Below are positions 30,061-38,061 of a stretch of DNA of 64,000 bases, piece by piece. The notes below the pieces were generated by a model. It ran no database searches and had not been told where the DNA came from. It saw only the letters and a list, made by a program, of their open reading frames with translations. A program made the translations under genes and the position numbers. The DNA comes from Octopus vulgaris (taxonomy: Eukaryota). The first letter of the stretch is position 1; each line of letters starts with the position of its first letter. The stretch covers positions 33,666,001 through 33,730,000 of the forward strand of contig OX597831.1 in the NCBI GenBank assembly GCA_951406725.2. The letters are read 5' to 3'.

Positions 30061-31226
30061 GTTATTATTATTATTATTATTGCAGAAGATATTTTAGTAC
30101 TTGTAGTGGTCACAGTGTAGATGCTACACCGTTTTTGTCCGCCCATCAATTCATCCACCCATCCATCCATCCATCCATCCATCCATCCATCCATCCATCC
30201 ATCCATCCATCTTGTTGGCGTCGTTGTTGCTGTAGCTGTTGTCTTGTTACATTCCTTACCATCACAGCCGTTGATTACATTGTTGTCGTTGCTCCTGTTG
30301 TCTTTGGTTTTTATTGTTGCTATTGCTCTTTATATATTCTTTGTTCACTTAGTTTGTACTCTTTTTTTTTGCCGTTGCTATTTCTGTTGTCATTGTCGTT
30401 ATTGTTATTCTCTTCGTGGTTTCAATTGTTTCTGTATACAAGATGAGGTAACCTCATGGCCAATGTCGGACAAACGTCAAGACATTTAAAAATAGAATAA
30501 AGGAACGAAACAATAAAAATTACAAAAGTATAGTAAAAAACCGTAAAACAAAATAAAAACAGATAAAAACAAGCAAAAACTTACAACGTACATATACAGT
30601 TTTGTATATATCAAAATGCATAAGTTGATATGAAAAAGAAAAGCGGCGTGGCAAAATTCCAAAGACGCCATATTAAATTCATTATAGATTGAAATTTCAT
30701 CTCAATTTTTCGGAGTTCAAAATAAATCAATAATATAAAACTAAAAGAATATTGATCCGTGTGTTTGTATTTATGCTTGCGTGTGTGTCTGTGTGTGTAT
30801 GTGTGTGTGTGTGATTGTGTCTGTGTGCTTGTTTGCTTGTGTGTGTGTATGTATTTGTGTTTGTGTGTGTGTCTTTTTACGCTCATGTGTGACACATAAA
30901 TTTTTTTTTTGCTCTGTTATTTGCCCATAACGCAATTACAGGACCATCGTATGTCATTCTGTCAAGAATGATCTTAACACAATGTGCTACGCTAAGTAGA
31001 ATGACACACTGCTATAAATAACAGTTCACCAACCCTGGACATTGTACATATTAATATCTTCTACCAAGTAAAACTATTTTTAAAAAATTGCTATATCTTA
31101 AGAAATGCTATATATATATATATATCGAATATGGTCCTTTTCCATACCGAAATACTACTAGGTGAAATTTGTTGATTTTATTAAATTAATTATCTTCCAC
31201 CCTATATCTGTAATAAAGTATATATA

Positions 31227-33149: not shown

Positions 33150-33914
33150 CCGCAAGGCAGCTTGGGGCAAAGTGGGGAGGAGTCGATTACATCGACCCCA
33201 GTGTTCAACTGGTACTTATTTTATCGACACCGAAAGGATGAAAGACAAAGTCGACTTCAGCGGAATTTGAACTCAGAACGTAGCGACGTCATGCTACTAT
33301 AATAATATTCTTTTCTTAGGCGGCGAGCTGGCAGAAACGTTAGCACGCTGGGCGAAATGCATAGCCGTATTTCGTCTGCCGTTACGTTCTGAGTTCAAAT
33401 TCCGCCGAGGTCCACTTTGCCTTTCATCCTTTCGAGGTCGATAAATTATGTATCAGTTACGCACTGGGGTCGATGTAATCGACTGAATCCGTTTATCTAT
33501 CCTTGTTTGTCCTCTCTGTGTTTAGCTCCTTGTGGGTAGTAAAGAAATAGGTATTTTGTCTGCCGTTACGTTCTAAGTTCAAACTCCGCCGAGGTCGACT
33601 TTTCCTTTCATCCTTTCGGGGTTGATTAAATAAGTACCAGTTACACACTGGGGTCGATATAATCGACTTAAACCCTTTGTCCTTATTTGTCTCCTCTATG
33701 TTTAGCCCCCTGTGAACAATAAAGAAAGGCCCGAAATTTTTGGGGAGGGGGCCAGTCGATTAGATCGACCCCTGTACACAACTGATACTTAATTTATCGA
33801 TCTCGAAAGGATGAAAGGCAAAGTGGACCTCGGCGGAATTTGAACTCAGAACGCAACGGCAGACGAAATACCGCTGAGCATTTCTCCTGGCGTGCTAACG
33901 ATTCTGCCAGCTCG
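33150..33914. mobile_element. Cluster of SINE family C copies in alternating orientation (-, + with internal duplication, -)
   Basis: Core motif and its reverse complement repeated; + copy starts at 33319. Confidence 0.8.
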
Positions 33915-34067
33915 TATCGGTTTCTTTGGGGTAAATAGCTAAGTTACAGGGACGTAAATAGACCAACACCGGGTGTCAAGTTGTGGTGGGGCACAGAAAC
34001 ATTCACACCTACATAATACATACATACATACATACATACATACATACATGCATACATATATATATGC

Positions 34068-34139
<72 letters not shown>

Positions 34140-34413
34140 CAACAATTGAGGGTAAAATTAATTAATTATTAATCAATTTCACCAAGTGTTCAGTATGCAA
34201 AGGGACCATTTAAGGCGAATTCAAATTATTACATTATATAAAAGGGCTTAGTAAAATAAATTACTTTGCCGCATACTGAACTCATTAGAAATAGCAGCTA
34301 AAAAACTTTTTTAAAACTATTTCTAATACTTAAAGAAAATCTCTCTCATATAGTGTTTGCTTAATTCAACTCACAAAAGTTTGGGGGTAAGGACATCAAA
34401 AAATCAAATGCTA

Positions 34414-34482
34414 AGGTTATTTGAGAACGTACGTTTCAAGATTAGTCAAAACGACACTTCTATCATCAGCTCAGAAACTCCT
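34414..34482 (-). ncRNA. Hammerhead motif, array unit 1
   Basis: Reverse complement of the 36821-36889 motif (aacgtacgtttc ... tcatcagctca). Confidence 0.75.
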
Positions 34483-34974
34483 TGGTTTGGATTTGGAAAC
34501 ACTGAAAGTAAGAACATACCCTTTCGGCTTCTCATCGCTTTCGAAGATCTGCTCGTAACTAACAGTGCCAACAAACTCAAATAAGCAAGCGAAGAATTTC
34601 TGTTCTCCCCCTTTCCACCAGCGTGGGTTAAAATCATCAAACACTATGCTTATTTCGGTAAAATCCGAAGCATTAATTAGAGGGAGATTAATTATAATTT
34701 CAACAATTGAGGGTAAAATTAATTAATTATTAATCAATTTCACCAAGTGTTCAGTATGCAAAGGGACCATTTAAGGCGAATTCAAATTATTACATTATAT
34801 AAAAGGGCTTAGTAAAATAAATTACTTTGCCGCATACTGAACTCATTAGAAATAGCAGCTAAAAAACTTTTTTAAAGCTATTTCTAATACTTAAAGAAAA
34901 TCTCTCTCATATAGTGTTTGCTTAATTCAACTCACAAAAGTTTGGGGGTAAGGACATCAAAAAATCAAATGCTA

Positions 34975-35043
34975 AGGTTATTTGAGAACGTACGTTTCAA
35001 GATTAGTCAAAACGACACTTCTATCATCAGCTCAGAAACTCCT
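34975..35043 (-). ncRNA. Hammerhead motif, array unit 2
   Basis: Same sequence as in unit 1. Confidence 0.75.
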
Positions 35044-35533
35044 TGGTTTGGATTTGGAAACACTGAAAGTAAGAACATACCCTTTCGGCTTCTCATCGCT
35101 TTCGAAGATCTGCTCGTAACTAACAGTGCCAACAAACTCAAATAAGCAAGCGAAGAATTTCTGTTCTCCCCTTTCCACCAGCGTGGGTTAAAATCATCAA
35201 ACACTATGCTTATTTCGGTAAAATCCGAAGCATTAATTAGAGGGAGATTAATTATAATTTCAACAATTGAGGGTAAAATTAATTAATTATTAATCAATTT
35301 CACCAAGTGTTCAGTATGCAAAGGGACCATTTAAGGCGAATTCAAATTATTACATTATATAAAAGGGCTTAGTAAAATAAATTACTTTGCCGCATACTGA
35401 ACTCATTAGAAATAGCAGCTAAAAAACTTTTTAAAGCTATTTCTAATACTTAAAGAAAATCTCTCTCATATAGTGTTTGCTTAATTCAACTCACAAAAGT
35501 TTGGGGGTAAGGACATCAAAAAATCAAATGCTA

Positions 35534-35602
35534 AGGTTATTTGAGAACGTACGTTTCAAGATTAGTCAAAACGACACTTCTATCATCAGCTCAGAAACTC
35601 CT
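35534..35602 (-). ncRNA. Hammerhead motif, array unit 3
   Basis: Same sequence as in unit 1. Confidence 0.75.
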
Positions 35603-36093
35603 TGGTTTGGATTTGGAAACACTGAAAGTAAGAACATACCCTTTCGGCTTCTCATCGCTTTCGAAGATCTGCTCGTAACTAACAGTGCCAACAAACTCAA
35701 ATAAGCAAGCGAAGAATTTCTGTTCTCCCCTTTCCACCAGCGTGGGTTAAAATCATCAAACACTATGCTTATTTCGGTAAAATCCGAAGCATTAATTAGA
35801 GGGAGATTAATTATAATTTCAACAATTGAGGGTAAAATTAATTAATTATTAATCAATTTCACCAAGTGTTCAGTATGCAAAGGGACCATTTAAGGCGAAT
35901 TCAAATTATTACATTATATAAAAGGGCTTAGTAAAATAAATTACTTTGCCGCATACTGAACTCATTAGAAATAGCAGCTAAAAAACTTTTTTAAAGCTAT
36001 TTCTAATACTTAAAGAAAATCTCTCTCATATAGTGTTTGCTTAATTCAACTCACAAAAGTTTGGGGGTAAGGACATCAAAAAATCAAATGCTA

Positions 36094-36162
36094 AGGTTAT
36101 TTGAGAACGTACGTTTCAAGATTAGTCAAAACGACACTTCTATCATCAGCTCAGAAACTCCT
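36094..36162 (-). ncRNA. Hammerhead motif, array unit 4
   Basis: Same sequence as in unit 1. Confidence 0.75.
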
Positions 36163-36820
36163 TGGTTTGGATTTGAAACACTGAAAGTAAGAACATACCC
36201 TTTCGGCTTCTCATCGCTTTCGAAGATCTGCTCGTAACTAACAGTGCCAACAAACTCAAATAAGCAAGCGAAGAATTTCTGTTCTCCCCTTTCCACCAGC
36301 GTGGGTTAAAATCATCAAACACTATGCTTATTTCGGTAAAATCCGAAGCATTAATTAGAGGGAGATTAATTATAATTTCAACAATTGAGGGTAAAATTAA
36401 TTAATTATTAATCAATTTCACCATAGCTTTAAAAAAGTTTTTTAGCTGCTATTTCTAATGAGTTCAGTATGCGGCAAAGTAATTTATTTTACTAAGCCCT
36501 TTTATATAATGTAATAATTTGAATTCGCCTTAAATGGTCCCTTTGCATACTGAACACTTGGTGAAATTGATTAATAATTAATTAATTTTACCCTCAATTG
36601 TTGAAATTATAATTAATCTCCCTCTAATTAATGCTTCGGATTTTACCGAAATAAGCATAGTGTTTGATGATTTTAACCCACGCTGGTGGAAAGGGGAGAA
36701 CAGAAATTCTTCGCTTGCTTATTTGAGTTTGTTGGCACTGTTAGTTACGAGCAGATCTTCGAAAGCGATGAGAAGCCGAAAGGGTATGTTCTTACTTTCA
36801 GTGTTTCCAAATCCAAACCA

Positions 36821-36889
36821 AGGAGTTTCTGAGCTGATGATAGAAGTGTCGTTTTGACTAATCTTGAAACGTACGTTCTCAAATAACCT
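36821..36889 (+). ncRNA. Type I hammerhead ribozyme motif (Penelope/retrozyme-type, palindromic stem III)
   Basis: Stem I UGAG/CUCA; core CUGAUGA 36834-36840; stem II AGA..GUC-GUUUU-GAC..UCU; GAAAC 36866-36870; GUAC loop; predicted cleavage after GUU at 36877. Confidence 0.75.
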
Positions 36890-37364
36890 TAGCATTTGAT
36901 TTTTTGATGTCCTTACCCCCAAACTTTTGTGAGTTGAATTAAGCAAACACTATATGAGAGAGATTTTCTTTAAGTATTAGAAATAGCTTTAAAAAGTTTT
37001 TTAGCTGCTATTTCTAATGAGTTCAGTATGCGGCAAAGTAATTTATTTTACTAAGCCCTTTTATATAATGTAATAATTTGAATTCGCCTTAAATGGTCCC
37101 TTTGCATACTGAACACTTGGTGAAATTGATTAATAATTAATTAATTTTACCCTCAATTGTTGAAATTATAATTAATCTCCCTCTAATTAATGCTTCGGAT
37201 TTTACCGAAATAAGCATAGTGTTTGATGATTTTAACCCACGCTGGTGGAAAGGGGAGAACAGAAATTCTTCGCTTGCAGTTTGTTGGCACTGTTAGTTAC
37301 GAGCAGATCTTCGAAAGCGATGATAGGGTATGTTCTTACTTTCAGTGTTTCCAAATCCAAACCA

Positions 37365-37432
37365 AGGAGTTTCTGAGCTGATGATAGAAGTGTCGTTTTG
37401 ATAATCTTGAAACGTACGTTCTCAAATAACCT
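37365..37432 (+). ncRNA. Hammerhead motif, last array unit
   Basis: CTGATGA at 37378-37384 and GAAACGTACGTT at 37409-37420; 1-nt deletion in stem II. Confidence 0.65.
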
Positions 37433-37589
37433 TAGCATTTGATTTTTTGATGTCCTTACCCCCAAACTTTTGTGAGTTGAATTAAGCAAACACTATATGA
37501 GAGAGATTTTCTTTAAGTATTAGTTTTTTAGCTGCTATTTCTAATGAGTTCATATGCGGCAAAGTAATTTATTTTACTAAGCCCTAATT

Positions 37590-37670
<81 letters not shown>

Positions 37671-38061
37671 CATATATGTACACATGTGGAGGCACATGGC
37701 CTTGTGGTTAGAGCAGCGGGTTCGAATCTCAGACCGGGCGATGTGCGTGTTTATGAGCGAAACACCTAAGCCCCACGCGGCTCCGGCAGAAGGTAATGGC
37801 GAACTTCTACTGACTTTTTCGATACAACTTTCTCTCACCGTTTCCTCCTGCATCTTGCAGCTCACCTGCGACGGGCCGGCGTCTCGTCCAGGTGGAGAAC
37901 CCATACGCCAAGAAAATTAGAAAACCGGCCCTTATGAGGCATGGCTCGAGAAGGAACAAACATATGTACACATACATAAATACTTACGTTCATACATACA
38001 TGTCTACATTCATACAAACCTATATACACATACATACATATATGCATCGGACTGGACACTT

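Follow-up and report, generated by a model that had tools for sequence, protein, structure and literature searches.

The 559-nt tandem unit described here from Octopus vulgaris is probably a young, dispersed animal non-LTR retrozyme copied by Penelope-like machinery, likely by way of an RNA circle. It lies in a stretch of 64,000 nt (GCA_951406725.2, OX597831.1:33,666,001-33,730,000, forward strand), hereafter the window, to which positions without a further identifier refer. The array combines a tandem unit, a hammerhead motif, a (TA)n target and two fixed 3' ends, both held by a conserved module. This class of element is already known; the conserved module with its two fixed ends, together with a helper candidate, is the more useful finding. 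The locus bears on questions raised in three papers (PMC7229834; PMC8557442; PMC11167929): the enzyme behind the mobility of animal retrozymes, the signal that this enzyme recognises, and the way in which Penelope elements produce tandem and inverted insertions. It offers a covarying 200-nt candidate signal, two predicted start sites, a rule of one insertion end of each kind and an intact, young candidate helper; signal, starts and candidate helper occur in one genome and are thus open to direct testing in an established in vitro assay.

Array layout and insertion ends

The array consists of two arms joined head to head between two TA microsatellites, as follows.

34016..34137, no strand: left (TA)n-type target microsatellite, adjoining the left arm
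34136..36423, minus strand: left arm of 4.1 units arranged head to tail; it begins at unit position 462 and runs out into (TA)n at the long 3' site (~510)
36423..37590, plus strand: right arm of about 2.2 units; it begins at unit position 327 and runs out into (TA)n at the short 3' site (~410)
36657..37215, plus strand: reference 559-nt monomer (family A)
37590..37677, no strand: right (TA)n target microsatellite, adjoining the right arm

An earlier sequence-only reading of the window had recognised the tandem unit and assigned it 560 nt, and the computed period corrects this to 559. The last unit of the right arm is decayed (91% identity, with deletions). Since the longest ATG-started frame in the monomer, both strands considered, is 58 aa, the unit is non-coding, and its G+C content is below 50% (0.32-0.35 in the 2-kb bins covering the array). 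A very abundant SINE-like repeat, present in both orientations, adjoins the array at 33181-33914 and occurs at about ten other sites.

A search of the assembly (2.8 Gb, 227 contigs) with the unit returned at least 237 matches on many contigs, from 40 scored of 1454 candidates, with 96-100% identity among the matches listed. Of 39 distinct inverted arrays whose outer ends could both be read, 34 have one end near unit position 410 and the other near 510, no array uses one site twice, and in the remaining five one of the ends falls elsewhere; the 10 arrays in a single orientation stop at the long site in 7 cases and at the short site in 3. Nearly all outer ends enter TA repeats, which makes a target-site duplication unreadable, while the inner ends are variable and arms reach up to 12 units. 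Tandem copies of this kind, in which the inverted arm is 5'-truncated and only one end carries a tail, correspond to the organisation of Penelope copies in PMC8557442. For Poseidon in vitro, PMC11167929 shows that reverse transcription begins at two internal sites, which flank the 'tail'; cleavage and extension affect both strands of AT-rich DNA, a dimer is predicted for the protein, and insertion does not require the hammerhead. The ending of one arm at ~410 and of the other at ~510 is therefore read as this 'tail' footprint, and mobilisation of the retrozyme by a Penelope-type enzyme appears very likely to us. With internal initiation a circle could serve as template, and we regard a circular template as fairly likely.

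Substitutions within the arrays bear on the template. Across 37 arrays, 14 substitutions private to one array recur in all units of the two arms (in 10 arrays), the pattern that copying of a single monomeric template would leave. Another 25 variants occur in only some of the units, several with a periodicity of 2-4 units, so that long arrays appear to have grown partly by duplication or from multimeric templates. In the long arrays at L186-L190 variants recur every 2-4 units, and at L190 an alternating variant is present in both arms, as expected from a dimeric circle.

Folding of the unit and its hammerhead motif

The sequence-only reading had described the monomer as self-complementary almost throughout and had listed six helices, all of which are present in the unit. 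The long-range helix 36657-36681/36929-36953 pairs at 21 of 25 positions (20 Watson-Crick, one G-U), against 8-13 in eight shifted registers; helices 36719-36727/36878-36886, 36976-36987/37007-37018 and 37021-37031/37104-37114 pair at 9/9, 12/12 and 11/11 positions; CACUG/CAGUG (unit 80-84/143-147) pairs with a probability of 1.0; and hairpin 37119-37151, in which G-U wobbles had been noted, has 14 Watson-Crick and 2 G-U among its 16 pairs. The circular minimum free energy of the monomer is -144.6 kcal/mol (z -6.2), more stable than all 60 and all 150 dinucleotide shuffles, and eight microsatellite-free control pieces of the window gave z values from -1.7 to +2.7. The fold is thus stable as claimed, but not self-complementary to an unusual extent, with 62% of bases paired against 61% in shuffles. 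One partner at P>0.9 (37 C) is predicted for 32% of bases, and the predicted fold is multibranched, not rod-like. Perfect helices of at least 9 bp number four in the unit (shuffle mean 1.2, maximum 6), and stability is concentrated in unit 301-559 (z -8.1), the hammerhead half reaching z -2.8.

As for the strand asymmetry implied by that reading, it is not significant by energy (plus z -6.2, minus z -5.5, a gap equalled in 18 of 150 shuffles; linear folds, z -6.8 and -6.1), and it is found instead in ribozyme polarity and in the pairing of shared variants. At 90 pairs with P>0.9, variants shared by at least 2 of 35 arrays kept pairing in 10 of 12 cases, compared with 19 of 50 private variants (Fisher p=0.008). 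The shared variants that kept pairing comprised 7 G-U, 3 Watson-Crick and no A-C (G-U vs A-C, p=0.07). Plus-strand pairing is under selection, and together with ribozyme polarity this constitutes a real strand asymmetry.

The features of the hammerhead half are listed below.

36657..36953, plus strand: long-range helix closing the hammerhead half (36657-36681/36929-36953)
36719..36886, plus strand: 9-bp helix proposed as a switch (36719-36727/36878-36886), present with P from 0.37 (37 C) to 0.86 (20 C)
36766..36782, plus strand: 17-nt insertion with the CACUG/CAGUG 'second motif', missing in a 541-545-nt subfamily
36820..36890, plus strand: type I hammerhead motif, read from the sequence, with predicted activity
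36820-36823/36887-36890 (outer) and 36830-36833/36878-36881 (inner), plus strand: hammerhead stem I, likewise a reading of the letters
36834-36840 and 36866-36869, plus strand: hammerhead core and GAAA, with a U-U at the base of stem II
stem III, plus strand: two pairs closed by a palindromic tetraloop
between 36877 and 36878, plus strand: predicted cut after GUU, an unusual site

A strict core occurs once, on the plus strand at 36834, and strict and one-mismatch searches found none on the minus strand of the unit. Rfam models gave no gathering-score match in the 64-kb window, and at relaxed thresholds only chance matches over the array, over families B and C (see below) and over the C-specific stretch. 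A genome-wide pattern search with GUC gave 4 matches, 2 of them in family A. From 169 alignments (91-100% identity), 65 distinct copies covering unit 1-300 were drawn. The core and U17 do not vary in any of the 65, and stem I is paired in 517 of 519 cells; the copies being young, this conservation is modest evidence. In the long-range helix of these copies one pair steps through U-A (37), U-G (25) and C-G (3), and a different pair is broken in 10 of 65. The 'second motif' was considered as a second hammerhead and rejected: it sits in the subfamily-specific 17-nt insertion, whose absence from the shorter subfamily indicates that it is not a conserved second ribozyme.

GUU is a weak hammerhead cleavage triplet. 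In an energy model without tertiary contacts the hammerhead fold is predicted to lie 10-12 kcal/mol uphill at 37 C, and in the circle the predicted probability of stem I is 0 at both 37 C and 20 C. A double hammerhead in the natural dimer is predicted to be 10.7 kcal/mol better than two single ones, at 17 kcal/mol above the free ensemble. The octopus motif resembles, in its weak stem III, palindromic tetraloop and U-U at the base of stem II, the axolotl ribozymes that cleave mainly as dimers according to PMC7229834. Contigs from seven runs guessed to be RNA and from one unlabelled run cover parts of the unit and are uninformative on strand, ends and level; one of them ends at 36878, an end that a graph fork explains equally well.

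A structured module shared with other tandem families

Both fixed 3' ends fall within the most stably folded part of the unit.

36966..37166, plus strand: structured module (unit ~310-510), conserved at ~70% identity in families B and C, where compensatory changes occur
36976-37018 (hairpin), 37021-37031/37104-37114 (multibranch stem) and 37119-37151 (hairpin), plus strand: parts of the module
near 37066, plus strand: short 3' end site, within a loop of the module
near 37166, plus strand: long 3' end site, just past the last hairpin of the module

At least two other tandem families share this module with compensatory changes, one of them without a hammerhead core. The first relative, 70% identical to unit 310-510, was met at a GIY-YIG search locus and belongs to family B, which has a 591-nt tandem unit with its own well-formed type I hammerhead (GUA site) and only the module in common with family A (loci L102 / L080 [G000:C6:81439726-81440482], L089 and L093). 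More than 1,000 candidate copies were found, mostly short truncated insertions. The 556-nt tandem unit of family C (L113:1478-2033, L104, L109) contains the module and both ends; neither a CUGANGA core nor an Rfam match was found in it, so that it carries another ribozyme class or none. At L206:6015-8328, an array of internally deleted, ~266-nt family C units is joined to an old Poseidon-like fragment. Family E (L138:1726-2625, minus strand) has a 495-nt unit, its own hammerhead and two ends ~89 nt apart; its kinship to the module is tentative (E 0.28 with R1, our model of the module, without sequence similarity).

Sequence similarity between A and B and between A and C reaches z of about 20, and BLAST alignments confine it to the module. 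There, 99.1% of 352 cells keep pairing (11 sequences from A, B and C), against 38-49% in slid controls. Double changes affect four module pairs, a count that taken alone was equalled in 103 of 500 shuffles, and the covariation comes from about three independent families or lineages. Reading by hand gave further double changes in the inner hairpin and in another A-like copy, leaving out hairpin H3 of family G (bulge, register shift). Compensatory changes thus occur across families; in the 9-bp helix near the hammerhead there is no double change in the 65 copies. Model R1 also found relatives at 31054-31210 of the window, L289:1960-2597, L291:469-599 and L292:913-1102, and the number of module-bearing families found at the loci scanned is a lower bound for the genome. 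The relative at L289 has its own hammerhead and is inserted into an old Hydra-like ORF.

Families B, C and E resemble A in folding or build (B z -6.8, C z -5.7) and in the one-of-each end rule, with ends 89-100 nt apart; the rule was followed in 7 of 8 cases in B (unbiased query) and in 14 of 14 in C and E, where the query favours the long end. Because folding is concentrated in the module, both ends lie inside it and it is common to otherwise unrelated repeats, we read it as an enzyme signal, and a role as a cis signal is likely. On this reading, the conserved self-pairing chiefly represents a recognition and priming structure for a borrowed enzyme, as opposed to a rod of viroid type or a switch serving the ribozyme. 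A literature search, with most subscription papers and bioRxiv supplements outside its scope, found no cephalopod retrozyme or shared priming module.

Candidate helpers, transposition and alternatives

The best helper candidate is a Hydra-clade Penelope element with a unit of ~2.6 kb and a 717-aa ORF bearing RWK, DKT and CxCX5C marks. It is under 3 kb, has a single ORF with a C-terminal GIY-YIG domain, a hammerhead and a (TA)n target; the assignment was made from motifs in the ORF and the 3' region against section 11 of PMC8557442, and a supplement of that paper lists an octopus Hydra family. All 150 scored matches, among 23,008 candidates, have 99-100% identity, which makes the element very young, and it has many unnamed relatives. 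Its hammerhead also reads GUU, it forms whole-unit tandems, and each of the 18 inverted insertions available in full (a nineteenth was cut) has one short and one long end, as do 8 of 9 that were pieced together, the two ends of the element being 67 nt apart compared with 89-100 in the retrozymes. Its 3' region has no significant similarity to families A, B, C and E (z -2.0 to 0.3) and model R1 has no match in it, so that it is the footprint that links helper and retrozyme. Among the scanned loci R1 found no module in the 3' region of any autonomous element, with weak matches at E 0.28-0.32. We slightly favour the Hydra clade as helper, as a candidate partner only. By eye, motifs in the Hydra 3' region resembled the module; this likeness was discarded as not significant, and it lies upstream of the hammerhead, not at the ends. 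At L218-L242 and L244-L262 the Hydra element forms whole-unit tandems and head-to-head pairs with up to several units per locus; its tandems suggest a circular template for the autonomous element.

Other autonomous elements were rejected as helpers. Two Neptune-like families have intact or long ORFs (781 aa and intact in one of them) and TA-repeat ends, without similarity to family A; in the inverted cases, one per family, both arms end at the same site, and a single score of z 3.7 was obtained for Neptune-1 against family E. The old Poseidon-like fragment joined to the family C array has 10 decayed matches and lacks the module, and module matches at old Hydra-like loci are separate retrozyme insertions. 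At L127-L135 an active Neptune-like element (781 aa) has a 3' hammerhead-like motif with a degenerate core (UUGAUAA), its ORF being preceded by an upstream open frame of 330-480 aa.

Taken together, transposition may proceed as follows. The retrozyme would likely be transcribed as multimers, predicted to be cut by the hammerhead, probably as a double hammerhead, and the monomers would likely be ligated into a circle. The circle would likely be copied into (TA)n by a reverse transcriptase/endonuclease of Penelope type, with the Hydra clade as its likeliest source: the protein would bind the module and nick both strands of the TA tract, reverse transcription would start internally, one DNA strand using the short site and its partner the long site (compare Poseidon in vitro), the enzyme running round the circle would generate tandem copies, and two unfinished cDNA ends joined back to back would produce the head-to-head array. 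A broader proposal, which we hold to be doubtful, is that a superfamily of RNA circles, with or without a hammerhead, uses one 200-nt fold to dock an asymmetric Hydra-clade dimer whose two reverse transcriptases would start at different sites and roll from opposite nicks, the Hydra element itself transposing via a 2.6-kb circular RNA.

Several alternatives were weighed against this reading. The unit may be a non-autonomous Penelope derivative that spreads from long linear read-through transcripts, with no circle and the hammerhead as a little-active passenger, a view favoured by the weak predicted hammerhead with its GUU site, the similar spread of family C without a core, the dispensability of the hammerhead in Poseidon insertion in vitro (PMC11167929), internal initiation working on linear RNA, and the periodic variants of long arrays. 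We consider it unlikely in view of the 14 array-private substitutions common to all units of both arms, the arms of up to 12 units, the retention of stem I and core (in young copies) and the different, well-formed hammerheads of B and E. A DNA-level satellite or foldback element, with inverted repeats acting as DNA hairpins and amplified by recombination, would account for some local duplication (periodic variants) and for several helices being perfect inverted repeats, but seems very improbable given that shared variants make G-U on one strand (7 G-U, no A-C) and that the 3' ends are fixed, the 5' ends vary and the targets are TA, all of them marks of retrotransposition. Hammerhead viroids carry ribozymes in both polarities and replicate from RNA to RNA without a DNA form. 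The sequence-only reading had likened the monomer to a viroid or retrozyme circle; the retrozyme half of this comparison holds (tandem non-coding unit, one plus-strand type I core, selected pairing), and the viroid half fails. A viroid-like replicon propagating by RNA-to-RNA rolling circle and occasionally integrated would agree with the strong folding of both strands, the hammerhead and the tandem copies, yet there is hardly a chance of it considering the branched, 62%-paired fold, the absence of a minus-strand core, the preference of shared variants for plus-strand pairing only, and the hundreds of genomic copies with the Penelope footprint of target-primed reverse transcription.

A further alternative, compatible with the retrozyme itself, concerns the 9-bp helix, which was proposed to sequester the 3' strand of stem I as a selected switch silencing the ribozyme in the mature circle, as PMC7229834 describes for plant retrozymes and viroids. 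Its probability at 20 C suggests that the helix may be populated in a cool-water animal, and its commonest variant keeps a G-U pair (16 of 65 copies). Nevertheless, when the helix is blocked by barring its upstream strand from pairing, the predicted hammerhead penalty stays the same (12.1 kcal/mol with the helix allowed vs 11.8 blocked at 37 C; 16.2 vs 15.4 at 20 C; energies omit tertiary contacts), and the predicted penalty is similar in linear precursors (9.5-10.7 kcal/mol); a 96-nt piece without the helix already misfolds (9.5 kcal/mol). The terminal pair is broken in 12 of 65 copies and double changes are lacking, helices of this length arise in shuffles, and family B leaves stem I free (P 0.68-0.96) whereas family E does not, in test stretches that each include a little flank. 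The silencing proposal thus finds no support and is improbable as a selected switch; in the circle, local misfolding and several alternative partners, not this one helix, are predicted to keep the hammerhead off.

Returning to the retrozyme, comparisons are with the accessible portions of the cited sources. The octopus unit agrees with animal non-LTR retrozymes (PMC7229834; bioRxiv 10.64898/2026.07.22.740005) in forming short tandem arrays that are dispersed, in having a single type I hammerhead in each unit, no protein and a low G+C, and in its stable self-paired predicted fold and co-existing Penelope-like elements. It differs in its GUU site, in a size (559 nt) above the 170-400 nt of PMC7229834, though inside the 51-972 of the bioRxiv paper, and in a hammerhead predicted off, where for most animal retrozyme circles the prediction left it free. 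Neither a cross-family module nor insertions that are head to head and have two fixed ends appear in the descriptions in these portions. No homology to the pLTR of an autonomous Penelope element was found in three active or recent families and 30 old Hydra-like loci, compared with 21 of 57 Xenopus families. What the unit has in common with hammerhead viroids and plant LTR retrozymes (PMC7229834) is a small, highly structured predicted circle with a ribozyme predicted inactive; the octopus unit is of type I rather than type III, has one polarity, a branched fold and no LTR organisation, and has genomic DNA copies made by reverse transcription. Penelope-like elements (Poseidon PAc, PMC11167929; Hydra, PMC8557442) share the tandem plus inverted 5'-truncated copy, the tail at one end only, two internal start sites, here inferred, AT-rich or (TA)n targets and a hammerhead near the ends, while the octopus retrozyme has no ORF, a tail of ~100 nt vs 30-40, whole-unit tandems of up to 12 units and strictly one end of each kind. 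At L165, L189, L207 and L138, retrozyme arrays and autonomous Penelope elements often share a TA tract in nested clusters.
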